A stretch of DNA of 13,746 nt from Arenicella sp. (GCA_016763815.1 JAESTB010000548.1:1-13746); one strand, 5' to 3'; numbered from the stretch's first letter, positions 974 to 13,746 are shown. Notes: generated by a model from the letters alone, not told the origin. A program made the numbers and translations.

Positions 974-1013
974 ATGATACTAAAATCATCAATAATTATA
1001 TATTTAGTATCAT
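974..1013. promoter_or_regulatory. Perfect 11-bp inverted repeat ATGATACTAAA-N18-TTTAGTATCAT; candidate operator overlapping an AT-rich promoter region
   Basis: Read directly from the sequence. Bases 974-984 are the exact reverse complement of 1003-1013. The 18-nt spacer (985-1002) is almost pure A/T and contains TATATT-like -10 candidates. The repeat lies about 80-115 nt upstream of the DUF485/actP start. The half-sites GATACT/AGTATC resemble the Pseudomonas-type PaaX box half-sites (GATACA/TGTATC, recalled from memory). Confidence 0.45.
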
Positions 1014-1089
1014 TTATATTTTTAACGTGTTAGATTTGAGAAATCGTGATTTCGAGACGATCTAGCTAACCCCGAATTAAAAGGCAGAA

Positions 1090-1386
1090 ATGATTTTGAA
1101 TAGTAATCCGGCATTTAGAAAACTTCTTAAGTTGCGTTCAAGAGTACGTTTTACTCTTGCCGCTCTGCTCGTGCTAGTTCACGCTTTTTTCGTAGGTGGA
1201 ATAGCGTTCTATAACGATCTTTTTGCTCGCCCATTGCAAGATGGGGGCACATTAACGATTGGCATTTTGGCCGCGGTGGTCGTGATTATAGCGATGGTAT
1301 TGCTTGAGTGGGTGTACATATTCATTAGCGAAAAGTGGCTGGACCCAATGCAGCAAAAAGTTCTAAGTGGTGAACATAATGATTAA
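1090..1386 (+). CDS. DUF485 small inner-membrane protein (YjcH family), partner of the ActP-type symporter
   Basis: The 98-aa protein has two predicted TM helices (FTLAALLVLVHAFFVGGIAF and LTIGILAAVVVIIAMVLLEWVYIF). Its size and pattern match E. coli YjcH. Its stop overlaps the start of the downstream ActP-family gene (ATGATTAA, 8-nt overlap), the same arrangement as yjcH-actP. Confidence 0.8.
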   Translation: MILNSNPAFRKLLKLRSRVRFTLAALLVLVHAFFVGGIAFYNDLFARPLQDGGTLTIGILAAVVVIIAMVLLEWVYIFISEKWLDPMQQKVLSGEHND

Positions 1387-3004
1387 TAAATTACTATGTT
1401 CACTTCTTTTGGTCATGGTCAGCGCGAATGCTTGGGCCGCTGCTGAGTCTCAGAGTGGCAATACTTCGGCTATCATTATTTTCGTCGCGTTCGTAGCTGC
1501 CACCTTGTGGATTAGTTATTGGGCTTCTAGCCGGACCAACTCCAGCTCCGCTTTTTACACTGCAGGCGGAAATATTACCGCAGGCCAAAACGGAACGGCT
1601 ATCGCCGGTGACTTCATGTCCGCCGCGTCATTTTTGGGTATTTCCGGCCTTATCTTCACCGCTGGCTTCGACGGTTTGATCTTAGCCATCGGGGCGCTAG
1701 CAGGGTGGCCGATCATGTTGTTTTTAATGTCTGAGCGTATTCGTAACCTCGGCCGTTACACGATCACTGATGTCGTTTCCTATAGGCTGCAACAACGGCC
1801 AATTAGAATGATCGCAACCTTAGGGACTATCTCAGTAATCATTTTCTATTTGATCGCGCAAATGGTTGGCGCCGGAAAACTGGTCGAATTGCTCTTCGGT
1901 ATTCCCTATACGGTTTCTGTCGCGATGGTTGGAGTCTTAGTCATTATTTACGTCACCGCAGGAGGCATGTTAGCGACTACTTGGGTGCAAATTATTAAAG
2001 CTATTCTACTTTTGAGCGGCGCCGCTTTGATGTGTGTGCTGGCCTTAGTAGCGTTCAACTTTAATCTCGATAGCTTGTTCGCAAAAGCGGTCGAGGTTCA
2101 TCCGCGCGGCGAATTAATAATGCAGCCGGGCAGTATTTTCTCTGACCCAATACAGGCGATTACGATTGCTGTTTCGATGATGTTCGGAACCCTTGGCTTG
2201 CCACATGTGCTCATGCGCTTGTTTACGGTCCCAGATATGAAAGCGGCGAAGAAATCTGTGTTTTATGCGTCGAACATGATGGCGCTATTTTACATAATGA
2301 CAATTTTGATTGGCTTTGCCACCATCGCGTTTATAAGCGGTGATCCGCAATATTATACTGATGGAAAACTGATTGGCGGCAGCAACGTAGCGGCGATTCA
2401 TTTAGCGCATGCGTTGGGTGGCGACTTACTTATGGGGTTTATGTCGGCGGTTGCATTCTCGACAATTCTAGCGGTTGTCGCCGGTTTGACGGTGGCGGGT
2501 TCGGCCGCGATTTCACATGACATATACGCCGAACTCTTAAGCAAAGGAAAGCCAGACCCGCGTAAAGAAATGTTTATTTCCAGAATTACCGTGGTGGTTT
2601 TGTGCAGTGTTGCCGTGGGACTTGGCGTTTTGTTTCAAAACCAAAATGTTGCCTTCATCGCGGTAATGCCGATGGTGATCTCGGCGAGTGTGAATTTCCC
2701 GATTCTAATTCTAGCCATGTATTGGCGAGGGTTTACCACTCGCGGCGCGGTGATCGGTGGGCTAGTGGGCTTCGTATCTTCAATCGCTTTGATTGTTGGT
2801 GGGCCAAAAGTGTGGGTCAGTATTATTGGCGCTGAGGCGCCACTCTTTCCATACGATTATCCCGCGTTGTTCACCATGACCGCCGCTTTTATCACCATGG
2901 TTGTCGTTTCAATAACTGATCGCAGTGCGGCTTCGGTTCAAGATAGAGCGCTATTTGATAAGCAGTTAGTGGTGGCGGAGTTAGCCAGTAACAAGAAGAT
3001 GTAG
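1379..3004 (+). CDS. Sodium:solute symporter family monocarboxylate permease (ActP / PaaL-PhaJ-like); candidate phenylacetate importer
   Basis: Strongly colinear by eye with E. coli ActP (YYTAGGNIT..QNG.AIAGD.MSAASFLGISGL, RNLGRYT..DV.SYRL, AQMVGAGKL.ELLFG, GGMLATTWVQIIKA, GLPH.LMR.FTV, AVAF.TILAVVAGL, FPY.YPALF). I place the start at ATG 1379 (MINKLL..., signal-like N-terminus as in ActP, GGTGA 5 nt upstream) rather than at the track GTG 1367. Confidence 0.9.
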   Translation: MINKLLCSLLLVMVSANAWAAAESQSGNTSAIIIFVAFVAATLWISYWASSRTNSSSAFYTAGGNITAGQNGTAIAGDFMSAASFLGISGLIFTAGFDGLILAIGALAGWPIMLFLMSERIRNLGRYTITDVVSYRLQQRPIRMIATLGTISVIIFYLIAQMVGAGKLVELLFGIPYTVSVAMVGVLVIIYVTAGGMLATTWVQIIKAILLLSGAALMCVLALVAFNFNLDSLFAKAVEVHPRGELIMQPGSIFSDPIQAITIAVSMMFGTLGLPHVLMRLFTVPDMKAAKKSVFYASNMMALFYIMTILIGFATIAFISGDPQYYTDGKLIGGSNVAAIHLAHALGGDLLMGFMSAVAFSTILAVVAGLTVAGSAAISHDIYAELLSKGKPDPRKEMFISRITVVVLCSVAVGLGVLFQNQNVAFIAVMPMVISASVNFPILILAMYWRGFTTRGAVIGGLVGFVSSIALIVGGPKVWVSIIGAEAPLFPYDYPALFTMTAAFITMVVVSITDRSAASVQDRALFDKQLVVAELASNKKM

Positions 3005-3052
3005 TTAAAAAATAAAAAAATAATTATTAATAAGTAAAATAGAGGAGTGATT

Positions 3053-5329
3053 ATGAAATTTGCAATAGGCAGTAAACCCAAGCTAAGCTCGCTTGCTATT
3101 GGTGTGGGGTTAGCAATGACGGCCGCCACGCCGGCATTGGCGAAGCAACAGCTTGAAGAAATAATTGTTACAGCGCAGTATCGCGCGCAAAGCATTCAAG
3201 ATGTTCCAATTTCGATCACGGCTATTGGCTCAGAAGAGTTAGAGGCCGCTAATATCTTTGATGCCGGATCTTTGGCCGTTAATGTACCCGGTTTATCGTA
3301 TGGAGAGTTTGCACCTGGACAGGCATTAATTTCATTGCGAGGTGTTAATTCGGCAGACGACGGAGCCGGCTTAGATAATTCAGTGGCGTTATTTTTGGAT
3401 GGCGTTTACATCGGTCGTGGTGCAGGAATTAATTTTGACCTATTTGACCTTGAACGTATCGAGGTATTGAAAGGCCCGCAAGGAACATTGTTCGGTCGTA
3501 ATGCGATCGGTGGAGCAATCAGTGTTGTAACCGAAAAGCCGAGTCAAGAATTCAGCGGAAAGGCCGCTGTTACCGTTGGTAATGAGGGCATACTACGTTA
3601 TCAAGGTTTAGTCAGTGGTGGAATAACTGACAAATTATCAGGCAAGTTAGTTGTGAACCATCGAGAACACGACGGTTTTGTGCGTAATGTGCTACTTGGT
3701 TTGGATCTACAAGACGAAGACCAATCGACGGTTCGAGGCCAGTTATTGTGGGAAGGCGAGAATTCAGAGTGGTTGCTTTCAGCAGATCACTTTGAAGACG
3801 AGCGCGCTGATGCCGGACGAGTGCCAATAGCGGGCCCATTTTTTGAAAACGGAGTGGCTCCTTCAGTTGGCTTAACTGGGCCTCTACAAAATACATCGCC
3901 GGTTGAAGGTTTTAGTGACCGTGAAACGGGTGGAATTAGCTTGCAGGGCGACATCGACTTCGGTTCAGGTAAGATTACTACGATCACCGCGATTCGAAGT
4001 GTTGAAACCGATTGGGAATTACCATCTATTGGTGCTCCAATTGGGGCTGACCTAGCGGCAGGCGTTTTTGGTATTGATGTGATCGATGATATTGAAGAAG
4101 AAATAGACACTTTTTCGCAAGAGTTTCGTTGGACATCACAATCGGACAGTTCTTTTAATTATGTGGTGGGTGCCTTCTTTTTAATCGAGGATACTGATCG
4201 ACGAGAACAATTTCGTTTAGATCGTAATACTCAAGCCACCGGTCAATCTGTGGTCGGTAATGAGTATACCCGAACCGAAAATGAGACGACTAGCTATGCT
4301 CTTTACGGGCAAGGTACTTGGGATATTAACCCGAAAACGACACTGAGTTTTGGTGGTCGATACAGCCGTGATGACCGAGATTATAGAGCCTCTGCGATTA
4401 ACTGTGACGGCAGTGATGAAGCAATTGTCGCAGCCGGTTTTGCAGACAATTCGAATTGTGTGTTTGGCGGAAACCGCGTGCAAGGTAGTTTGAATATTAT
4501 CAATGAAGTGTTCATTCGAGAAGCGGATGTAGATTTTGATGACTTCTCACCAATGGCCTCATTGCAATATCGTCCGAACGAAAATACGATGTACTTTGGA
4601 ACCGTTTCGACTGGTTATAAGTCAGGTGGTTTTGCTGGCTCTCAAGGTGTTGCGTCTGCGGCGACGAACGTGGTCAACCCAGAACAAGTTACCAACTTTG
4701 AACTTGGTTTTAAAGGTGACTTTCTTGACAATACTTTGCGCTTTAATGCGACAGCATTTGTGTCTGACTATGAAGACTTGCAAGTAGTTCGCTTTGGCCC
4801 GGTACCCAATTCTGATTTTGGCTCGTTCCAGACTACCAATATTGGTAGTGCTGATTTGTCGGGTGTCGAGCTAGACTTTATTTGGTACGCAAGCGACCGC
4901 ATTAAGTTTTCAGGCAATTATGCTTACCTTGATACCGAAGCCAATGATTTGGTTCTCCAAGGTGCCAATGGTTCGTCTGATTTTTCAGGTTTAGCACTGC
5001 GCCAAGCGCCTGAGCATTCGTATAGTTTTACCGCAAACTATAATTTACCGACAGCGCATGGTGAGTATGATTTCCGTTTACAGTACAGCCATGTTGATGA
5101 ACAACACTTTGACTTTCCTACGATCACTGAAACCATTGCTGATGAAGTAGATTTACTCGATCTACGAATTAACTGGGTTTCTTCAGATGAGAAGTATCAG
5201 CTGACGTTATGGGGACAAAATGTTACCGATGAAGAATACATTACTCATGCATTTAGAATTGGCCCAGGCTCAATTGGTGTCTATGGTGCCCCCGCCACTT
5301 TTGGCGTGACCGGTACGGTTAACTTTTAG
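3053..5329 (+). CDS. TonB-dependent outer-membrane receptor (plug plus 22-strand barrel type), substrate unknown
   Basis: Signal peptide with an ALA-K cleavage site. A TonB-box/plug start follows (QLEEIIVTAQYRAQSIQDVPISITAIG), then plug motifs (RIEVLKGPQGTLFGRNAIGGAI) and the C-terminal barrel signature ending in a terminal Phe (TGTVNF). GAGGAG at 3042-3047 sits 5 nt before ATG 3053, so the track GTG at 3047 is unlikely. There is no N-terminal FecA-type signalling extension. Confidence 0.9.
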   Translation: MKFAIGSKPKLSSLAIGVGLAMTAATPALAKQQLEEIIVTAQYRAQSIQDVPISITAIGSEELEAANIFDAGSLAVNVPGLSYGEFAPGQALISLRGVNSADDGAGLDNSVALFLDGVYIGRGAGINFDLFDLERIEVLKGPQGTLFGRNAIGGAISVVTEKPSQEFSGKAAVTVGNEGILRYQGLVSGGITDKLSGKLVVNHREHDGFVRNVLLGLDLQDEDQSTVRGQLLWEGENSEWLLSADHFEDERADAGRVPIAGPFFENGVAPSVGLTGPLQNTSPVEGFSDRETGGISLQGDIDFGSGKITTITAIRSVETDWELPSIGAPIGADLAAGVFGIDVIDDIEEEIDTFSQEFRWTSQSDSSFNYVVGAFFLIEDTDRREQFRLDRNTQATGQSVVGNEYTRTENETTSYALYGQGTWDINPKTTLSFGGRYSRDDRDYRASAINCDGSDEAIVAAGFADNSNCVFGGNRVQGSLNIINEVFIREADVDFDDFSPMASLQYRPNENTMYFGTVSTGYKSGGFAGSQGVASAATNVVNPEQVTNFELGFKGDFLDNTLRFNATAFVSDYEDLQVVRFGPVPNSDFGSFQTTNIGSADLSGVELDFIWYASDRIKFSGNYAYLDTEANDLVLQGANGSSDFSGLALRQAPEHSYSFTANYNLPTAHGEYDFRLQYSHVDEQHFDFPTITETIADEVDLLDLRINWVSSDEKYQLTLWGQNVTDEEYITHAFRIGPGSIGVYGAPATFGVTGTVNF

Positions 5330-5392
5330 TCGCAGCATTAGGGTGAATCTTCGGTGGCTTGCCATCGAATGGATTTTTAATTTCAAAAATTG

Positions 5393-5418
5393 TCCCCGCT
5401 GCTTCTGGCGGGGATTTT
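5393..5418 (+). terminator. Rho-independent terminator after the TonB-dependent receptor gene
   Basis: The stem TCCCCGC (5393-5399) pairs with GCGGGGA (5408-5414), giving 7 bp of which 6 are G:C. The loop is 8 nt and is followed by TTTT (5415-5418). An A-tract (5385-5389) precedes the stem. Confidence 0.7.
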
Positions 5419-5440
5419 ACTAAACGTAAAAAACTAAAAT

Positions 5441-8400
5441 ATGCTGAATAAAACTATTGTAGAAGTAGTTGATTGGATGGGCGCAACGATGCGCCCATTT
5501 TTTTTGGGTTTGTTATCAGCGCTGGCGTTAAGCGCTGGTTCGTCGGTGGCTTCCGAAGGTAGCGTTACCTCGCCGGACGTGTCTGTAACTCAGGGCGCTG
5601 ACTTAACGGATGCTCTAGAGGGCACGACCATCTACCGAGATGAATATGGTACCCCTCATGTTGTTTCTGACAGCAACTATGGGGTCTATTTTGGCTACGG
5701 ATATGCGGTGGCGACAGACCGATTATTCCAAATGGAAATGCTTAGACGGACGGCAGAAGGTCGTGTGGCTGAAGTATTAGGCCGTAAATATCTTGATCTG
5801 GATAAACACCTGCGCACTGCTTATGACCATCGTGCCGTGAGCCGGCAACTAAACGAGCTAGACGATCAAGACAGAGACGTTTTGCAGGCCTATGCTGCAG
5901 GTTTTAGCAAGCGGGTGAGTGAGGTGCTTAGCGCACAAGCGACACTGCTACCAAAAGAATTTATGGATTATGGGTTTTTGCCGCAGAAATGGAGCTCCTA
6001 TGACGTGGCGATGATTTTTGTTGGGTCTATTATCCATCGTTATTCCGACTTTAATTCCGAGTTAGACAATCTAAGTTTGTTGACCAGTTTGAGCAAGTTG
6101 CATGGCGTAGAAAAGGCTCAGAAAATATTTGATGCGTCTAAATGGTTGGTCGACCCAAGCTCACCAACAACCGTACCGCGAGACCAACCCACCCAAGCCG
6201 CCGCTGTTTCGGCCGTCGTATCTGATACACCATTGAATGCCACACATGCTTGGAATACTCAGCAGCCTCTGGGCGAAGTGCAGACAACGCGAGTGGTGTT
6301 AGACAAAAATGGCAGGTTTCTAGGCACCACTAATGATCCGAAAATGCAAGCTATCGCGGATCAACAACTCGCTGAGTACGGTTTTATTGGCCCAGAATAT
6401 CAAGCGGCGAGCAATTTTTGGTCAGTCAGCGGCAGTAGACTAAGCAATGCCGATGGTGCCCTGGTAAACGGCCCGCAGTTTGGCTTTGGTTTGCCTTCGT
6501 ATGTGTATAGCATTGGTTTACATGGAGGCGATTTTGATTTGGTCGGCAACACGCTATTAGGCTTACCGTCGATGTTATTTGCGCATAACAATAATGTCAG
6601 TTGGGGAAGTACCGCCGGTATGAGTGACCAGGTCGACGTGTACCGGGAACAACTGATTAACAATAAGCCGGAACATTATCGGCATGACAATCAAGATAAA
6701 AAGTTTGAGACTTGGATTGAAACGATCAAGGTTAAGGGTGAAGCCGACGTCGCGGTGACCGCACGGCGTTCAGTTCATGGCATGGTCGTCTCAATGGACC
6801 GTGAAAGTGGTACCGCCTATACCCGCGCTAGAGCATGGGAGGGTGCCGAAGTTCAAACTCTAATGGCCTGGGTGAACTTATCGAAAGATAAAACCATGGA
6901 CGCTGTCCAATCACGCTTGAGCGGCGTGGCGGCTAATATCAATTTTTATTATATGGATGTAAAAGGCAATTTGGGCTACACCCATGGCGGCCGCTATCCG
7001 CGGCGTGCTGATTCTCACGATTCACGAATTCCTGCTGAGGGTTCTGGCCGCGATGATTGGTTGGGTTTTCGTCCCTATTCAGACAGCCCGAATGTGCGTA
7101 ATCCTGATCAAGGTTATATTGTCAATTGGAATAATCGACCTGCTGCAGGTTGGCCTACCAGTGATTTATGGACCTACACATGGAGCGAAGCCGATCGTTC
7201 TAAGCATATTGTGAATGAGATTAATTCATCCGCAAAGATGACGACAGATGACGTTTGGGCTATTACTGAACAGGTTAGCTATAAAGATGTATCGGCGGTT
7301 TTTTTATTGCCTTACTTGACTAAGGCGGTGTCGGCAGTAGTTCTGAGTTCTGACTCTAAAAAGGCATTCGAAATTGTCGAGAACTGGGATCGCGAATGGC
7401 GACTTGAAGCGAATGGAGAATACGGTGCCGCTGAGTTAATAGTCGAAAGTTGGACTAAACGTCTGTTTGAAAATGTCTTTAAAGACGATATAGGTGAAGA
7501 TAAATACGCACTGTATGCGGCGACCAATAACCCGAATAAGCCGCTTGGCCCATCGATGGGTTCCAGTGTTGGCTCGAAGGTGATATTACGTAACTTGACT
7601 TCCCTGGAGAGCGGTACCAATGATTATGATTTTTTCAACGGGGAAACGCCCGCTAAGGTTTTGTCACGGAGCTTTATCGAAACAATCGAAGCTCTGATTG
7701 CGGAGCATGGTAGTGACACCTCAACGTGGACATTAGCGGCGGCACCTATGACTTGGAAACCATACAATTTTCGCGGTGTGCCTCAAGCGTCTGAAGACCG
7801 CTTAGTATCGTTGCCAGCCTATATGAATAGAGGCAGCGAAAACAATTTCTTTGTGGCTAAAGATGGCCGATTTGTAGCCTTTGATGTGAACCCACCTGGG
7901 CAGAGCGGTTTTGTGGCTGCGGATGGAACCGCTGCAAAACATAGTGAAGATCAGGTGGACTTATACTCTACGTATGGAACTAAAGTGCTGCCGTTTACAA
8001 TTGAAGAAATCAAAGCAGCAGCCGTAACAATAGAGATCTTGAATCATGATTCTAAGCCTGAAGTGCCCAAAGCCGGTGCAGGTTTTAAGAGCTCAAGCAA
8101 TTTGCTTGAGCAAATGCAGGTCACTTTTGAGCGAGCCGAGAGCGTTAAAAATCTAGGCGCCTTTATACATCTCGATAATGCGGTGGCTCTGGCGTCTGCG
8201 CATAGCGCTCAGGCCGCGCTTGATGCGGGTAAAACAGTCGGCGCTTTGCATGGTGTGCCGATTGTTGTTAAGGATAATATCCATGTCGCGGGAATGCCCA
8301 ACTCCGCGGGTACACCGGCACTTAAAGGCTTTATGCCGCAAGACAATAATCCTGCGGTTCAACGGCTACTCGATGCCGGCGCGATTGTTATCGGTAAAAC

Positions 8401-9439
8401 AAATATGCATGAGCTAGCATTTGGTATCACCAGTAATAATGCCGCGTTCGGGCCGGTGCGAAATGCATACGACCCATCACGGTTCGCTGGAGGCAGTAGT
8501 GGTGGAACCGCTGTCGCTATAGCCGCCGGAGTTGTCGATATGGGGCTTGGTACTGATACCGGCGGTTCTACGCGTATTCCTCCGGCGTTAAATGGCGTGG
8601 TTGGTTTTCGGCCGTCCTTGGGTCGGTACCCGTCTGGAGGGGTCACGCCCGTGTCGGAAACTCGCGATACTGTTGGGCCGATTGCGAATAATGTGACCAA
8701 CCTGGCGTTATTAGACTGCATAATGAGCGATTGTGATTCAGCGCTTAAGCCTGTGTCGTTGAAGGGCTTGCGTTTGGGGATACCTAGAGAATATTTTTAC
8801 CACAACCTTTCTGAGGATGTTGCAACTACCATGCAACAAACGATCGAAATGCTCGCCAACGCGGGCGTCATAATTGTCGAAGTGGAGATGCATGGCTTAG
8901 AAGAAGCGAATAATGGTGTGAGCTTTCCAGTCGTTCTTTATGAGTTTATTCATGAATTGCCGGTGTATTTAAAAACTCAAAACACCGGAGTTTCGATGCA
9001 ACAACTGGTTGACGGAATCGCTAGCCCAGATGTGAAAGCCACTGTCCTAAGCCAACTAGGTGAAGAGGCAATGCCCGAGCTATCGTATCGACAAGCCCTG
9101 GATGAGTTTAGACCCCGGTTACAATTGCTCTATCAAAAAACCTTTGATGAATACAATGTTGCTGCATTATTAATGCCGACTACGGTATTATCAGCACAGC
9201 CCATTGATAGTAGTGATGAAACGGTGATGTTGAATGGCACGCAAGTACCGACATTTCCGACTTATATCAGAAATACTGATCCATCTTCAAATGCAGGCAT
9301 ACCGAGTTTGACGCTCCCGGCTGGGAAGGGGCGAGATGGTTTGCCGATTGGTGTTTTGTTAGACGGCCCGAAAAATAGCGACCGACGATTGTTATCGATT
9401 GGCTTGGCTGTAGAGAAAATGATTAACAAACCACCTTAA
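5441..9439 (+). CDS. Exported fusion protein: penicillin G acylase family Ntn hydrolase (peptidase S45; alpha chain, spacer, beta chain) joined by a short linker to an amidase-signature (AS) family amidase
   Basis: A single uninterrupted 1332-codon ORF. Residues ~60-867 match E. coli Pac by eye (IYRDEYGTPH, YGYAVATDRLFQMEM, LLPKEF, DVAMIFVG, SELDNL, then beta-chain SNFW, NGPQFG, WGSTAG, YIVNWNN, ADR, NRGSEN, PPGQSGF). Residues ~887-1332 are an AS amidase (LHGVPIVVKDN, GGSSGGTAVAIAAG, GTDTGGSTRIPPA). The coordinates give the maximal ORF. The physiological start is more likely Met17 (ATG 5489), which yields a classical signal peptide MRPFFLGLLSALALSAGSSVAS-E. Met13 (5477) is also possible. Confidence 0.9.
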   Translation: MLNKTIVEVVDWMGATMRPFFLGLLSALALSAGSSVASEGSVTSPDVSVTQGADLTDALEGTTIYRDEYGTPHVVSDSNYGVYFGYGYAVATDRLFQMEMLRRTAEGRVAEVLGRKYLDLDKHLRTAYDHRAVSRQLNELDDQDRDVLQAYAAGFSKRVSEVLSAQATLLPKEFMDYGFLPQKWSSYDVAMIFVGSIIHRYSDFNSELDNLSLLTSLSKLHGVEKAQKIFDASKWLVDPSSPTTVPRDQPTQAAAVSAVVSDTPLNATHAWNTQQPLGEVQTTRVVLDKNGRFLGTTNDPKMQAIADQQLAEYGFIGPEYQAASNFWSVSGSRLSNADGALVNGPQFGFGLPSYVYSIGLHGGDFDLVGNTLLGLPSMLFAHNNNVSWGSTAGMSDQVDVYREQLINNKPEHYRHDNQDKKFETWIETIKVKGEADVAVTARRSVHGMVVSMDRESGTAYTRARAWEGAEVQTLMAWVNLSKDKTMDAVQSRLSGVAANINFYYMDVKGNLGYTHGGRYPRRADSHDSRIPAEGSGRDDWLGFRPYSDSPNVRNPDQGYIVNWNNRPAAGWPTSDLWTYTWSEADRSKHIVNEINSSAKMTTDDVWAITEQVSYKDVSAVFLLPYLTKAVSAVVLSSDSKKAFEIVENWDREWRLEANGEYGAAELIVESWTKRLFENVFKDDIGEDKYALYAATNNPNKPLGPSMGSSVGSKVILRNLTSLESGTNDYDFFNGETPAKVLSRSFIETIEALIAEHGSDTSTWTLAAAPMTWKPYNFRGVPQASEDRLVSLPAYMNRGSENNFFVAKDGRFVAFDVNPPGQSGFVAADGTAAKHSEDQVDLYSTYGTKVLPFTIEEIKAAAVTIEILNHDSKPEVPKAGAGFKSSSNLLEQMQVTFERAESVKNLGAFIHLDNAVALASAHSAQAALDAGKTVGALHGVPIVVKDNIHVAGMPNSAGTPALKGFMPQDNNPAVQRLLDAGAIVIGKTNMHELAFGITSNNAAFGPVRNAYDPSRFAGGSSGGTAVAIAAGVVDMGLGTDTGGSTRIPPALNGVVGFRPSLGRYPSGGVTPVSETRDTVGPIANNVTNLALLDCIMSDCDSALKPVSLKGLRLGIPREYFYHNLSEDVATTMQQTIEMLANAGVIIVEVEMHGLEEANNGVSFPVVLYEFIHELPVYLKTQNTGVSMQQLVDGIASPDVKATVLSQLGEEAMPELSYRQALDEFRPRLQLLYQKTFDEYNVAALLMPTTVLSAQPIDSSDETVMLNGTQVPTFPTYIRNTDPSSNAGIPSLTLPAGKGRDGLPIGVLLDGPKNSDRRLLSIGLAVEKMINKPP
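5477..5505 (+). promoter_or_regulatory. Terminator-like hairpin plus U-tract overlapping the candidate start codons of the acylase-amidase fusion gene (possible attenuator or translation-occluding structure)
   Basis: ATGGGCGCA (5477-5485), loop ACGA, TGCGCCCAT (5490-5498) form a perfect 9-bp stem. Including the last stem base, 8 consecutive T follow (5498-5505). ATG 5477 (Met13) forms the base of the 5-prime arm. ATG 5489 (Met17) spans the loop and the 3-prime arm. Confidence 0.55.
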
Positions 9440-9465
9440 ACAAAAATCTTACAAGTAGGACTCAA

Positions 9466-10464
9466 ATGCAACCCACCAACTCTCAACATTCTTTGAATAA
9501 GCATATCGGCGGGTTTATCGAATCTCTAATACTCGACCGGCGTGTGCATGCCAAATCGCTGGTCTCTACCTTGTATGGGGATATGGTGGTAACCAATGAT
9601 GGTTTCGCCTGGGTTGAAACTGTGTGCGCTGCGCTTGAGTTATTGGGTGTTAATGACCGGCTTGTACGTACAGCTTTGTTTCGTCTCAGAGAGGATGGCT
9701 GGGTAACAGCAACTCGCTCTGGGCGCAAAAGTTATTATCAATTGACTGAGTCTGCCGACGCTCAAACTCGTCAAGCGGAGCAGCGAATTTACTACTCCGA
9801 TACGCCGAGCTGGGATGGTAGCTGGGTTTTGATATTTTTGCTTGCTCCGTCCTTAGATGCAGAACTAAGACGTGAGTTTGAGCAAGAACTAGGGTGGATA
9901 GGTTTCGGTGCGATGAGCAAACGTGTTTGGGCCTATCCTGGCAATAAGTTTGAGCTTATCTCTGAGAAAATCAATCGGCTAGATTTAACCGGCAAGGTCA
10001 TTGCCATGCGCTGTAAAAATATTCATGAAGTAGACTTAGGTTTGAATATCGACGATCGAGAGCTTGCGGCTATGTGTATGCCGATCTCAGAGGTGGAAAG
10101 TATCTATAAGCAGTTTATACAAGATTTTTCGCCGTTGATCGATGAATACGGCGTTTTCTCGATGCAAGGAAACAATGCTGAAATGTTATCGCTGCGATTA
10201 TTGATGATGGATGAATATCGCCGAGCGACCTTACGTGATCCCCATTTACCACGAGCGTTACTGCCTGATAATTGGGCAGGCCACGAAGCATTTGTTCTCT
10301 GTGGTAAAATTTATAAACAAATTTATAAAGCGGCCAATATGCATTACAAAGAATTACAAAGAAATGCGGGTGTGGTTGATGTCGTCGACGGTGACGGCGC
10401 TGATAAATCAACTAGGCCATTGAGTTATGACGGTAGGTTTCTCGCCGAAACGATTAACAAATAA
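9466..10464 (+). CDS. paaX: PaaX, phenylacetyl-CoA-responsive transcriptional repressor of phenylacetate catabolism
   Basis: Colinear by eye with E. coli PaaX (SL.S.LYGD, R.ALFRL..EGW......GR.S.Y.L....., P.WDG.W.L, GFGA, LRDP.LP..LLP..WAG). AGGA lies 7 nt upstream of the ATG. The gene starts only 26 nt after the stop of the fusion gene. Confidence 0.9.
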   Translation: MQPTNSQHSLNKHIGGFIESLILDRRVHAKSLVSTLYGDMVVTNDGFAWVETVCAALELLGVNDRLVRTALFRLREDGWVTATRSGRKSYYQLTESADAQTRQAEQRIYYSDTPSWDGSWVLIFLLAPSLDAELRREFEQELGWIGFGAMSKRVWAYPGNKFELISEKINRLDLTGKVIAMRCKNIHEVDLGLNIDDRELAAMCMPISEVESIYKQFIQDFSPLIDEYGVFSMQGNNAEMLSLRLLMMDEYRRATLRDPHLPRALLPDNWAGHEAFVLCGKIYKQIYKAANMHYKELQRNAGVVDVVDGDGADKSTRPLSYDGRFLAETINK

Positions 10465-10489: not shown

Positions 10490-10527
10490 TAATAGCCAGT
10501 ACTATGCTGGCTATTAACGTTTTCTTT
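10490..10527. terminator. Stem-loop between the convergent paaX and paaE genes (likely the paaX terminator, possibly bidirectional)
   Basis: TAATAGCCAG (10490-10499) pairs with CTGGCTATTA (10507-10516), giving a 10-bp stem with a 7-nt loop. ACG then TTTTCTTT follow on the plus strand. The trailing tract on the minus strand is weaker. Confidence 0.5.
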
Positions 10528-10559: not shown

Positions 10560-11642
10560 CTATTTTTCATCAAAATCGACAGTGACTTCGTCGCTGATCG
10601 GGTGAGCTTGGCAGGTTAAGACAAAGCCCTGTTGTATTTCTTCATCGCTGAGCGAATAGTTTAGATCCATCTCTGTCTCGCCTTTAATGACTTTGGCCTT
10701 GCAGGTGGCACACACGCCAGCCTTGCAGGCAAATGGCAAATCTTTTCGAACTTTCAGCGCTGCATCAAGTATTGATTCTCCGCCTCGGGCGAGTTCTAAT
10801 TTACTGCCTTTACCATCGATGATAACAACCAGTTTAACTAAGTGTGAGCGCTCTTCGTCAGTCAATGATTTTTGAGCTTGAGCGTTGGCTATTGCTTGAA
10901 GGTCTTCAGGTACTCCAAATAGTTCGCTATGAACGTTCTTTTTTTCTACTCCAGCGATCACAAAGGCCTCTTGTGCGGAGGTAACCATTTCATAGGGGCC
11001 ACAAAGAAACACATCATTCAACTGGTCTGCTGGAATCAGTGTCTTCAAAAACTGAGAAATCTTCTTACCATCAATCCGGCCATTTAATAAGTCAGAGTTT
11101 TGGATTTCACGGCTCAACACGTTGAATACCGCGAGGCGTTCATGATACTTGTTTTTTAGTCCCTCTATTTCTTCTAAGAACATGATTGTGTCAGTGCTCT
11201 TGTTTCCATAAATAAGCGTAAAAGTACTACTCGATTCTGTTTCAAGGGTGGTTTTTAAAATTGACAGAACAGGGGTAATACCACTCCCCGCAGCGACGCC
11301 AATATAATTGTTGCTTTGCGTAGCATCCAGCTCAGTATAAAAGTGGCCGGTAGGCGGAAGCACATCGATGGTATCACCAACCGCAAGTTCTTCATTCGCC
11401 CATGTTGAAAAGAGTCCACCTTCAACCTTTTTAATGCCGACACGGAGTTCGTTGTCAGCGACACTGCTGCAAATCGAATATGAACGTCTTAGCTCTTCAC
11501 CATCAATTTCACGGATGAAGGTTAAATTTTGGCCTTGTGCATAGGTGAAATCACCTAATCTATCAGAGGGGACATCTAGAGAAACGACAACAGAGTCGTG
11601 TGTCTCGCGAGTAATATTCTTAACGGTGGCTTTAGCAAACAT
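10560..11642 (-). CDS. paaE: Phenylacetyl-CoA 1,2-epoxidase reductase subunit PaaE (FNR-like FAD/NAD(P)H domains plus a C-terminal plant-type 2Fe-2S ferredoxin)
   Basis: RRSYSICS flavin-binding motif (RxYS), GVAAGSGITP nucleotide-binding motif, and a C-terminal CKAGVCATCKAKV...C cluster-binding motif. Colinear by eye with E. coli PaaE. It is the last gene of the paaABCDE string. Confidence 0.92.
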   Translation of the reverse strand: MFAKATVKNITRETHDSVVVSLDVPSDRLGDFTYAQGQNLTFIREIDGEELRRSYSICSSVADNELRVGIKKVEGGLFSTWANEELAVGDTIDVLPPTGHFYTELDATQSNNYIGVAAGSGITPVLSILKTTLETESSSTFTLIYGNKSTDTIMFLEEIEGLKNKYHERLAVFNVLSREIQNSDLLNGRIDGKKISQFLKTLIPADQLNDVFLCGPYEMVTSAQEAFVIAGVEKKNVHSELFGVPEDLQAIANAQAQKSLTDEERSHLVKLVVIIDGKGSKLELARGGESILDAALKVRKDLPFACKAGVCATCKAKVIKGETEMDLNYSLSDEEIQQGFVLTCQAHPISDEVTVDFDEK

Positions 11643-11650
11643 GTTTTATT

Positions 11651-12148
11651 TCAGATTGGTTTGAAGTAGTCGAACGGCTCTTTGCATTGATTGCACTTCC
11701 AGAGTGCTTTACAAGCAGTAGAACCAAATTGACTAATTATTTGTGTGTTTAGAGATCGGCATTGAGGGCAGGGCGCCGTGAACAATAGCCGCTGTTCTTC
11801 CGATGATTGGCTTAAATCCGTGGTTCGACACGGTGGGGCAATGCCATAGTCACGCAATTTTTGTTTACTTTCATCGCTCATCCAGTCGGTGGTCCAAGCG
11901 GGAGATAAAACCAGCAACACCTCAGATTCGGGATACCCATTGTCAGCAAGCACGGTGCTGACATCTTGCGCTATTTGATCTATTGCTGGGCAGCCAGAGT
12001 ACGTGGGTGTAATGGTGACTTTAACGCGGCCGTGTTCTATTGCAACTCCCCTGAGTATGCCCATTTCATCTATGCTTAAAACTGGGATTTCGGGGTCTGC
12101 CACAGACGAGAGTATCTCGAGTAGTTTTACCTGTTCTTGAGACTGCAT
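11651..12148 (-). CDS. paaD: Phenylacetyl-CoA epoxidase accessory subunit PaaD
   Basis: Matches E. coli PaaD by eye (DPEIPVL.I.D.G, TPTYSGCPA, PAWTTDWM, REYGI.PP, C.....FGSTACKAL..C..C.EPFDYFK.I). I place the start at ATG 12148 (MQSQEQ...), 2 nt after the paaC stop. The track GTG at 12157 is an alternative. Confidence 0.88.
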   Translation of the reverse strand: MQSQEQVKLLEILSSVADPEIPVLSIDEMGILRGVAIEHGRVKVTITPTYSGCPAIDQIAQDVSTVLADNGYPESEVLLVLSPAWTTDWMSDESKQKLRDYGIAPPCRTTDLSQSSEEQRLLFTAPCPQCRSLNTQIISQFGSTACKALWKCNQCKEPFDYFKPI

Positions 12149-12150
12149 AT

Positions 12151-12903
12151 TTACCACTTACACCCTGGCATGCTACGCGGCAGAATCTGCATTTCAGCTA
12201 AGATGTACCCCAAGTGTTGAGTGTGGATGCCTTGACGACCACCACTCATTAGAAACGCCTCGTCGGGCTTTATTAGTGTTGCTTCTTCGAGTAACGCGGT
12301 GACAGCGGTGTCCCATATTACTTTCACTTTGCTTAAATCGGCCGCATGGCCTTTAGCCAGTAAGCGTTGATCTACCTCATCGGATTCGAACATTTCGGGA
12401 GTGAACTGCCACATCTCGTTTACTGCCTCCTGCATGCGTTCATGGCTGAGCTCAGTGCCATCGCCAAGACGTTTAACCCAGTTGCTGCTGTGGCGTACAT
12501 GGTATTGCGCTTCTTTCACTGATTTAGTCGCGATTGCCGCAAGCATTTCATCGTTGCAATTCACCAGCTCTTGAAGGAATGCTAAGTGCCAAACGTCGTA
12601 GAAATACTGTCTTGCGATGGTGTCAGCGAAATTTCCACTGGGCTGCTCAACCAGTAATAAATTTCTCCATTGGCGCTCGTCACGCATGAATGCTAAATCG
12701 TCTTCGCTGATGTCTTTATCTGAAAGCTCTGCTGCGTATTGGTAGAGCGAGCGAGCTTGGCCAATCATGTCCAGGCCGATATTGGTTAAGGCTATGTCTT
12801 CTTCAAGCTCAGGAGCCTTAGCCGCCCACTGACAGAGGCGCTGACACAGTATCATCGCGTTGTCCGCTTGGCGCAAGGTATAGGTATATAAATCGTTATT
12901 CAT
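12151..12903 (-). CDS. paaC: Phenylacetyl-CoA epoxidase structural subunit PaaC
   Basis: Matches E. coli PaaC by eye (YTLR.DN...L.QRL..W...APELE.D.AL.NIGLD..GQAR, RDERQ..NLLLVEQP.GNFADTIARQYF.D.WH, H..HLG..LAEMQ). Its ATG overlaps the paaB stop (TAATG). Confidence 0.9.
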   Translation of the reverse strand: MNNDLYTYTLRQADNAMILCQRLCQWAAKAPELEEDIALTNIGLDMIGQARSLYQYAAELSDKDISEDDLAFMRDERQWRNLLLVEQPSGNFADTIARQYFYDVWHLAFLQELVNCNDEMLAAIATKSVKEAQYHVRHSSNWVKRLGDGTELSHERMQEAVNEMWQFTPEMFESDEVDQRLLAKGHAADLSKVKVIWDTAVTALLEEATLIKPDEAFLMSGGRQGIHTQHLGYILAEMQILPRSMPGCKW

Positions 12904-13193
12904 TACATATGCTCGAGTTCTTTTGGCAACTTATAAAACGTGGGGTGTCGATAAATTTTGTCTCCTGACGGATCAAAAAGAACACTCTTATCATCGGGGT
13001 CTGACGCCACAATTTGTGACGAAGGTACAACCCAAATGCTGACACCCTCCATTCTGCGTGTGTATAGGTCTCGGGCATTTTGCATTGCCATTTCGGCATC
13101 AGACGCTCTAAGGCTGCCTGCGTGTTTGTGATCAATACCTCGGTTTGAGCGTATAAATACTTCCCAAAGCTGATAGTCTTTTTTGTCAGTCAT
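12903..13193 (-). CDS. paaB: Phenylacetyl-CoA epoxidase subunit PaaB
   Basis: The 96-aa product MTDKKDYQLWEVFIRSNRGIDHKHAGSLRASDAEMAMQNARDLYTRR.EG.SIWVV....IVAS...........DPS.DKIYRHPTFY matches the length and sequence of E. coli PaaB. I place the start at the internal ATG (13193), not at the 128-aa track ORF start, which would overlap the paaA 3-prime end. Confidence 0.9.
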   Translation of the reverse strand: MTDKKDYQLWEVFIRSNRGIDHKHAGSLRASDAEMAMQNARDLYTRRMEGVSIWVVPSSQIVASDPDDKSVLFDPSGDKIYRHPTFYKLPKELEHM

Positions 13194-13221
13194 AACCGTC
13201 GTTTCTCTCGTCTGTTTTTGC

Positions 13222-13746
13222 TTAGGCAGCTTGCGCTTTGGCAGCTTGCGCTTTGGCGGATTTTTTTTCGGCATAGGCAATCGCGGCATCGCGTACCCAT
13301 TGACCTTCTTCGTGTGCTTTGCGCCGATTATCGACGCGCAGCTTGTTACAGGGGCCGTTGCCCTTTATCACGTTATAGAACTCTGTCCAGTCAGGTTCGC
13401 CATAATCATAGTGGCCGGACTCCTCATTCCACTTGAGCTCGGGGTCTGGAATCGTTAAGCCCAATATTTCGGCTTGGCCAACCGCCATATCGATATATTT
13501 TTGGCGCAGCTCATCATTGGAAAACAGTTTGATTTTCCATTTCATAGACAGCTCAGAATTGGGCGATTGGTCATCGCGAGGCCCGAACATCATAATAGAT
13601 GGCCACCACCACCGATTAAGCGCGTCTTGCGCCATTTCTTTTTGTTTAGGGGTGCCATTGCAAAGCGACAGCATGATTTCATAGCCTTGGCGTTGATGAA
13701 AACTCTCCTCCTTACAAACGCGAACCATTGCACGCGCGTAAGGGCC
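13222..13746 (-). CDS. paaA: Phenylacetyl-CoA epoxidase catalytic (di-iron) subunit PaaA, N-terminal part outside the window
   Basis: The reading frame stays open to the window edge ([25 protein letters not shown]...). It matches the C-terminal half of E. coli PaaA by eye, including the EESFH di-iron ligand motif. Stop is TAA at 13222-13224. Confidence 0.92.
13225..13254. repeat. Perfect 15-bp tandem duplication (GGCAGCTTGCGCTTT x2) inside the last codons of paaA
   Basis: Read directly from the sequence: 13225-13239 is identical to 13240-13254, and GGC begins a third unit. On the minus strand it encodes the C-terminal tail (AKAQA)2, seen as ...[14 protein letters not shown]-stop. Confidence 0.85.

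Follow-up and report, generated by a model that had tools for sequence, protein, structure and literature searches.

A gene block beside the phenylacetate genes of Arenicella sp. as a probable envelope-spanning front end for the use of arylacetyl amides

In Escherichia coli W, a periplasmic enzyme of the penicillin-G-acylase type, encoded by the lone gene pac, lets phenylacetyl amides feed the phenylacetate (paa) pathway, and pac is repressed by the phenylacetyl-CoA-responsive regulator PaaX (Galan 2004 and Kim 2004, as cited in PMC9493321). In Pseudomonas putida, the paa catabolon includes a dedicated inner-membrane permease and an outer-membrane component, paaL/paaM (phaJ/phaK; PMC3224230), and in Pseudomonas sp. 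ABC07 amidases and an importer are encoded together in the put operon, from which phenylacetate passes to the paa pathway (Crofts 2018, via PMC11446756). Further, DdvT of Sphingobium sp. SYK-6 is a TonB-dependent receptor (TBDR) dedicated to an aromatic carbon source and not to iron or a vitamin (PMC6874591), and SusC/SusD loci unite importers for both membranes, TonB-dependent at the outer one, with envelope hydrolases and a regulator. The present study concerns a stretch of 13,746 nucleotides (nt) from Arenicella sp. (GCA_016763815.1 JAESTB010000548.1:1-13746; contig C455 of its genome), hereafter the window, in which a block of five plus-strand genes shares features with all of these systems. 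The genes encode a DUF485 protein, an ActP-like symporter, a TBDR, a fusion of a penicillin G acylase with an amidase and a PaaX-family repressor, and from our point of view they probably form an envelope-spanning front end of the paa catabolon.

Genes were identified by an open reading frame (ORF) listing together with Pfam and NCBIfam profile searches, and all five genes that the initial annotation had named beside the paa genes were recovered where it had placed them:

974-1013, no strand assigned: candidate PaaX-type operator, ATGATAC-N26-GTATCAT, with the core TGATAC-N26-GTATCA at 975-1012
1090-1386, plus strand: DUF485 small membrane protein, a YjcH-like symporter partner (PF04341, E = 2.4e-16)
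1367-3004, plus strand: ActP-like sodium:solute symporter (SSS; PF00474, E = 7.5e-101)
3053-5329 (alternative start 3047), plus strand: TBDR (PF07715 Plug and PF00593 barrel)
5350-5369 and 5393-5414, plus strand: two intercistronic hairpins after the receptor gene (-12.2 and -16.5 kcal/mol)
5441-9439, plus strand: penicillin-G-acylase::amidase fusion, 1332 amino acids (PF01804 at residues 63-859, PF01425 at residues 895-1318)
5441-8098, plus strand: penicillin-G-acylase part of the fusion, with signal peptide, alpha chain, spacer and beta chain (PF01804, E = 2.3e-122)
8099-9439, plus strand: amidase-signature domain of the fusion (PF01425, E = 3.5e-99; triad Lys944, Ser1019, Ser1043)
9466-10464, plus strand: PaaX-family repressor, last gene of the block (PF07848, PF20803, PF08223)
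10490-10516, no strand assigned: bidirectional terminator hairpin of 12 bp between paaX and paaE (-16 kcal/mol, z = -5.2)
10560-13746, minus strand: paaE (10560-11642), paaD, paaC, paaB and the 3' part of paaA, for phenylacetyl-CoA epoxidase (TIGR02160, TIGR02159, TIGR02158 and TIGR02157 above their cut-offs)
1-768: pcaD (3-oxoadipate enol-lactonase), at the contig edge, upstream of the block and not part of it (TIGR02427 above its cut-off)

The block had been described as lying back-to-back with paaABCDE, which is right for the adjacency but not for the orientation, as the block and paaEDCB(A) converge tail-to-tail with the stop codons of paaX and paaE 95 nt apart. The junctions within the block are indeed short or overlapping, with an overlap of up to 20 nt between the DUF485 and ActP-like genes and gaps of 42-48 nt between the ActP-like and TBDR genes and of 26 nt between the fusion gene and paaX; the exception is the gap between the TBDR and fusion genes, which measures 111 nt and holds stable hairpins. 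The genome is fragmented (642 contigs, 4.32 Mb, 85% complete), and the rest of the paa set is found on contig C244, which carries the 5' part of paaA, paaZ, paaY, the divergent paaFGHIJ and the first 36 residues of paaK, after which the contig ends. The full paa set is thus present in this genome. The closest public relatives of the fusion protein also carry the label Arenicella sp.

We propose that the TBDR takes up one or several amide-linked arylacetyl, mainly phenylacetyl, compounds, which the fusion protein would hydrolyse in the periplasm at two independent sites, namely an N-terminal nucleophile (Ntn) hydrolase site at Ser324 and an arylacetamide-hydrolase-type site at Lys944/Ser1019/Ser1043, both sites together releasing the free arylacetate and an amine or ammonia. 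The DUF485/ActP-like symporter would then move the acid across the inner membrane, PaaK would form phenylacetyl-CoA, which enters the paa pathway, and phenylacetyl-CoA would lift PaaX from the operator before the block. As such, the block would induce itself and, with it, its own repressor.

Compared with pac, the acylase is here fused to an amidase and stands in a block with a receptor, a symporter and paaX. Compared with paaL/paaM, the outer-membrane component is a TBDR instead of a channel protein, and the imported substrate is probably a conjugate and not the free acid. The put operon (PMC11446756) comprises a beta-lactamase, an MFS importer and two separate amidases, lacks a TonB receptor, an Ntn-type acylase and PaaX, and is induced by penicillin and not by phenylacetate. 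DdvT serves another substrate class, has no coupled periplasmic hydrolases and shares with the receptor of the window only the general receptor fold. The likeness to polysaccharide-utilisation loci that the initial annotation had drawn holds for the functional logic, the envelope hydrolases being lipoproteins in most relatives, whereas the substrates would here be amides and the hosts are Gammaproteobacteria rather than Bacteroidota; moreover, the receptor is not of the SusC type (TIGR04056, 52.8 versus 368 bits) and the window contains no SusD-like gene. In the literature on TBDRs, penicillin acylase, phenylacetic acid and PaaX, we found no published description of such a module. What appears to be new is that a dedicated TBDR, an acylase clade marked by its own pocket residues, an amidase as obligatory partner (here fused to the acylase) and an integrated symporter and repressor are combined, and that this combination recurs.

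The recurrence of the module was assessed on loci collected by searches with the fusion protein and the receptor, and since related genomes are non-independent samples, all counts are treated as descriptive. The following arrangements were found, in which MAG stands for metagenome-assembled genome:

L004, L005, L022 and L023: the full order of the window, DUF485-SSS-TBDR-fusion-PaaX facing paaEDCBA, with fusion proteins 72-80% identical
L024: fusion-PaaX facing paaEDCBA, with no transport genes
L038: amidase, then TBDR-acylase-PaaX, facing paaEDCBA
L037: TBDR-fusion inside a paa cluster, directly 3' of a paaH-like gene
L006 and L007 (Thiotrichales MAGs): amidase-TBDR-acylase-second amidase beginning 3 nt past paaK, with paaZ-DUF485-symporter running divergently
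L016: TBDR-acylase and PaaX-paaEDCBA facing each other, DUF485-symporter being close by
L039 (the cultured isolate Dasania marina): same-strand TBDR-acylase-DUF485-symporter-amidase, paa not alongside
L010, L012, L013, L015, L019 and L021 (Pseudoteredinibacter, Cellvibrionaceae): amidase-TBDR-acylase, away from paa
L034 (genome G341): PaaX-like-amidase-TBDR, without acylase

Conservation of the gene order in relatives, which the initial annotation had made a test of its proposal, was thus observed in full in four loci, and the components recur beside paa genes in rearranged form in L006/L007, L016, L037 and L038, and together, with no paa genes alongside, in L039. Altogether, about nine distinct arrangements of the same parts exist among lineages of marine Gammaproteobacteria, including the cultured Dasania marina and Pseudoteredinibacter, and their constant core consists of the TBDR, the acylase and an amidase of the 'indoleacetamide-hydrolase' family. 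The gene paaA was present in 6/6 other module-carrying genomes tested, and two 99%-complete genomes of the same genus lack receptor, acylase and paaA alike. One could argue that the five genes are independent neighbours with unrelated functions, and the terminator-like hairpins between the receptor and fusion genes would fit such a fortuitous adjacency. However, the variety of arrangements in several gammaproteobacterial lineages is hard to reconcile with chance, operators are common to the block and paa promoters, and we regard this explanation as hardly credible.

Within the collected loci, the identities form a mosaic. The fusion protein and PaaX of the window are closest to the L022 group (72-80%), whose paaABCDE products are only 45-63% identical, and the paa genes (69-90%) and the receptor (78%) of the window have their closest counterparts in L038, which carries acylase and amidase in unfused form (59-60%). 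These identities suggest that the fusion-paaX cassette may have been exchanged as a unit.

The candidate operator overlaps a promoter-like site at 969-996 and lies 77 nt before the DUF485 gene. In its geometry, two inverted half-sites of 6 bp with a spacing of about 27 bp, it agrees with the PaaX site of E. coli, TGATTC-N27-GAATCA (PMC9493321), the half-site being TGATAC here and TGATTC in E. coli. The operator was matched in 0 of 200 dinucleotide shuffles of the window, and in the 4.32-Mb genome the core TGATAC-N26/27-GTATCA has three exact sites, namely the one in the window, a copy at C244:5283 within the divergent paaF/paaY promoter region, and a box on contig C205, which is intragenic and was rejected as a chance match. 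Among the relatives, L022 has the operator at both equivalent places, L004 and L023 have it before DUF485, and in L024, where the transporter genes are absent, it directly precedes the fusion gene; L005 and L024 also have it at paaY/paaF. With one mismatch, it precedes the receptor gene in L037 and L038 as well as the Dasania array, and the motif is also present in unlinked paa clusters of Pseudoteredinibacter and of a Thiotrichales MAG.

The repressor itself matches all three PaaX Pfam domains. Since the candidate operator is common to the block and to the paa promoter of the same genome, is kept at equivalent places in relatives and has no competing signals beside it, the block is very probably a member of the PaaX regulon, in line with the PaaX control that had been proposed for it. 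Binding of PaaX to this site and its release by phenylacetyl-CoA would follow the E. coli model. As paaX is the last gene of the block, the block would also be autoregulated, which is known for the paaXY operon of E. coli (PMC9493321).

The acylase part of the fusion aligns end to end with solved penicillin G acylases over both chains (best E = 3.5e-163), and its match to PvdQ-type lactone acylases is far weaker (E = 1e-7). Ser324 (nt 6410) aligns with residue 1 of the solved beta chains and is hence the predicted N-terminal nucleophile, and the approximately 75 residues between the end of the alpha-chain alignment and Ser324 correspond to a spacer, from which self-cleavage is predicted. The window acylase keeps beta S1, Q23, F24, F57, S67, A69, W154, I177, N241 and R263 as well as alpha R145, and the oxyanion-hole and helper residues beta Q23, A69, N241 and R263 are conserved in the window protein and 14 related marine proteins. 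Of the eight residues of the phenylacetyl pocket (alpha M142 and F146; beta F24, F57, S67, F71, W154 and I177), five are identical. At the other three, the whole clade carries substitutions near the leaving-group site (alpha M142I, alpha F146Y, beta F71M), which set it apart from the classical enzyme: all three occur in the 14 marine relatives examined and are absent from the Achromobacter and Providencia enzymes. Beta F71 affects substrate binding and chiral discrimination (PMC3347531), and the clade thus supplies natural acylase variants at positions that shape specificity. The residue pattern suggests that the acyl preference stays phenylacetyl-like and that the leaving-group site differs from that of classical enzymes.

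Homoserine lactones and penicillins are among the compounds that members of the penicillin acylase family can cleave (PMC11903891 and PMC5474475), and through the put operon the amidases of soil bacteria are coupled to the paa pathway in the breakdown of penicillin. It could hence be imagined that the exported enzymes serve in signal or antibiotic interference by inactivating acyl- or aryl-homoserine lactones or benzylpenicillin-type antibiotics, and that the paa pathway only disposes of the acid. We consider this unlikely, because inactivation needs neither a TonB-powered importer nor an acid symporter, both of which are uptake devices, the block contains no beta-lactamase, PaaX control would tie expression to the phenylacetyl-CoA flux, and the acylase is far nearer to penicillin G acylases than to the PvdQ type (E = 1e-163 versus 1e-7).

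Turning to the amidase, the triad motifs VVK(944)DN, GGS(1019)SGG and GGS(1043)TR are intact, and the domain exceeds the cut-off of NF005688 (590.7 versus 532 bits), whose name 'indoleacetamide hydrolase' is an annotation label and not the outcome of an assay. NF005688 was the best family for all module amidases scanned; the unfused ones score 514-577 bits, with three of four above the cut-off and the fourth just below. The fusion protein has a signal peptide at its N-terminus, by which its export is predicted, and the unfused acylases and amidases of relatives carry lipoprotein-type signals. From these two features together it follows that both activities should act in the cell envelope, which is consistent with the periplasmic location originally assigned to the fusion enzyme. 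As the constant core of the module comprises receptor, amidase and acylase, the amidase does not seem to be an accessory. We prefer the reading that it covers a complementary set of arylacetyl amides; alternatively, it could make a second cut in the same molecule as the acylase.

A different role would be nitrogen scavenging by the amidase-receptor pair, in which ammonia or amines are of value and arylacetate is a by-product handled by the paa pathway. The pair is the most constant unit of the module and occurs without the acylase in G341, and in L037 a second receptor with further amidases and amidohydrolases is located in the neighbourhood. However, neither genes nor sites for nitrogen regulation were seen, the regulator that accompanies the pair belongs to the PaaX family, in G341 too, and in L006 the acid symporter and paaK are physically linked to the pair. 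Such a role hence appears quite improbable to us, compared with the processing of arylacetyl amides for the paa pathway.

With regard to transport across the inner membrane, the symporter misses the cut-offs of both ActP models (743.6 versus 750 for NF006903; 702 versus 1099 for the second model). It is 89-90% identical in L004, L005 and L022 and 71% in Dasania, and homologues with 50-57% identity are located beside paa genes in L006 and L016; a DUF485 gene is paired with the SSS gene in L004, L022, L006, L016 and L039. The linkage to paa in the window, L006, L016 and L039 points to the symporter as a putative importer of phenylacetate or arylacetates. Presumably, PaaL belongs to the same ActP-like subfamily. 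The role in carrying the acid over the inner membrane, which the initial annotation had assigned to the symporter, would also fit by analogy with the Pseudomonas phenylacetate permease PaaL (PMC3224230).

For the receptor, ATG 3053, which lies 7 nt past a GGAG, is a likelier start than 3047. The protein has a signal peptide ending in PALA, a TonB-box-like EEIIVTA motif, the Plug domain and a barrel domain, from which its TonB dependence is predicted. Wherever a locus has enough flank, the orthologue (50-79% identity) adjoins the acylase and/or the amidase; orthologues are rare, with 3 of 400 sampled genomes of the class carrying one, and the amidase is adjacent wherever flanks exist. There is no close solved structure for the receptor, the likeness to solved structures being generic, to siderophore and colicin receptors and strongest over the plug domain, and the structures give no clue to the substrate. 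The assumption of the initial annotation that the imported conjugate must be too large for porins was not supported, since DdvT, itself a TBDR, has a small substrate, namely a lignin-derived aromatic dimer (PMC6874591).

The best NCBIfam match of the receptor is a siderophore-receptor subfamily, at a score well under its cut-off (143.8 versus 223.5 bits), and PvdQ, which acts in pyoverdine maturation, is in the same Pfam family as the acylase. One could therefore speculate that an iron chelator is the target of the receptor and the hydrolases, in the manner of PvdQ or of the acylases that act on marine amphiphilic siderophores, and that the adjacency to paa is incidental. We regard this as very improbable, as a search for Fur boxes with up to 3 mismatches gave none and the block has a PaaX box instead, the acylase belongs to the penicillin-G type and keeps five of the eight residues of the phenylacetyl pocket, and a carboxylate symporter and paa genes are linked to the module in several arrangements.

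As to the transcription of the block, four relatives share the hairpin at 5393-5414, in which the closing pair is swapped, and its T-run is short. A third hairpin (-17.6 kcal/mol) at 5475-5500 leads into a run of eight T, up to 5508; it lies over codons 12-20 of the fusion gene and covers the internal ATGs at 5477 and 5489; its stem is kept in relatives, whereas the T-run is specific to the window. ATG 5441 and its 12 codons are conserved in relatives, with synonymous changes, and the receptor-acylase gap in other relatives measures 5-40 nt. Between the receptor and fusion genes, we found no second PaaX box and no promoter-like site, and a permissive Rfam scan of the window returned nothing, the receptor-fusion hairpins matching no RNA family. 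We infer that the hairpins are attenuators or RNA-stabilising elements inside an operon, in which all five genes may be co-transcribed.

Several observations nonetheless weigh against the block being a front end of the paa catabolon. Small arylacetamides should pass porins, which leaves the need for a TonB-powered receptor unexplained, and the family name of the second hydrolase is, as said, a label. PaaX scores 216.9 bits and thus stays under the TIGR02277 equivalog cut-off of 264.55, and the unlinked triads of Pseudoteredinibacter and Cellvibrionaceae have no PaaX box upstream with up to 2 mismatches, so that PaaX control is not universal. In G341, the PaaX-like gene, the amidase gene and the TBDR gene occur without the acylase. 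Lastly, given the stable hairpins between the receptor and fusion genes and the hairpin with eight T in the first codons of the latter, the five genes may differ in amounts or may not share one transcript.

Going beyond the role as a front end, one could speculate that the module represents an undescribed nutritional route in marine Gammaproteobacteria, namely the TonB-powered capture of specific natural arylacetyl amides, which would be the ancestral job of penicillin G acylase. The three pocket substitutions (alpha 142, alpha 146, beta 71) would then tune the leaving-group site, and the amidase would make a second, obligatory cut on the same molecule. We put this forward tentatively, as a possibility with somewhat less than even chances. 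Candidate substrates of such a route are phenylacetyl-amino acids, phenylacetyl-capped peptides or lactones, and conjugates of the auxin type, phenylacetyl or indoleacetyl, from algae. The natural role of penicillin G acylase, an enzyme of major industrial use, is conjectural, and a recurrent, regulated module makes this role testable. As the cultured Dasania marina and Pseudoteredinibacter isoporae carry the module, the question of the substrate is open to ordinary genetics and enzyme screening. If true, amide-linked aromatic acids would be a new substrate class of TonB-dependent receptors.

Some of the collected loci have further neighbours. Upstream of the module, L022 (1-5200) and L024 (800-9700) hold a cluster that encodes MarR, a CoA ligase, a thiolase, DUF35, SDR, Rieske alpha and beta subunits, a cyclase and an MFS protein, and the Rieske alpha subunit matches a solved protein of 437 residues (7yls/8h2t; E = 1e-136). 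A length of 437 residues is also reported for the auxin dioxygenase IadD of Variovorax (PMC10374108), to which 7yls/8h2t may correspond. This IadD-like cluster was not found in the genome of the window, where the best matches reach only 29%. In L039 (3198-9901), a one-mismatch PaaX-type box lies 60 nt before genes for an extracytoplasmic function (ECF) sigma factor, a FecR-like anti-sigma factor and an STN-domain receptor, which directly precede the receptor-acylase-DUF485-symporter-amidase array and possibly form a cell-surface signalling layer over the module. In two unrelated loci, genes for LigB-type extradiol dioxygenases stand just upstream of the receptor gene (L016:3757-6861) or of the PaaX-like gene (L034:5671-6495), in L016 accompanied by an M20 peptidase and an alpha/beta hydrolase, which hints that hydroxylated arylacetates may also be handled.

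L003 and L016 belong to one Pseudomonadales MAG (CBDBDZ01) with two paaABCDE clusters, each having its own PaaX paralogue and its own acylase; one of the acylases is fused, and the other is a lipoprotein that comes with a receptor. L043 (6185-9845) is from a close relative with 73% identity in the acylase. There, 216 nt separate the acylase ORF from that of a shortened amidase, and PaaD-PaaE and PaaA-PaaB are each joined in the gene calls, which reflects either real fission and fusion or assembly frameshifts. In the genome of the window, contig C149 (3557 bases) carries a second DUF485 gene (44%) beside a paaJ-like thiolase gene (70%), together with fragments of an ActP-like gene (72-80% over residues 32-141 only); possible explanations are decay of a paralogue, co-binning of a strain variant or fragmentary assembly. 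Lastly, pcaD at 1-768 is a gene of the beta-ketoadipate pathway that adjoins the phenylacetate block.

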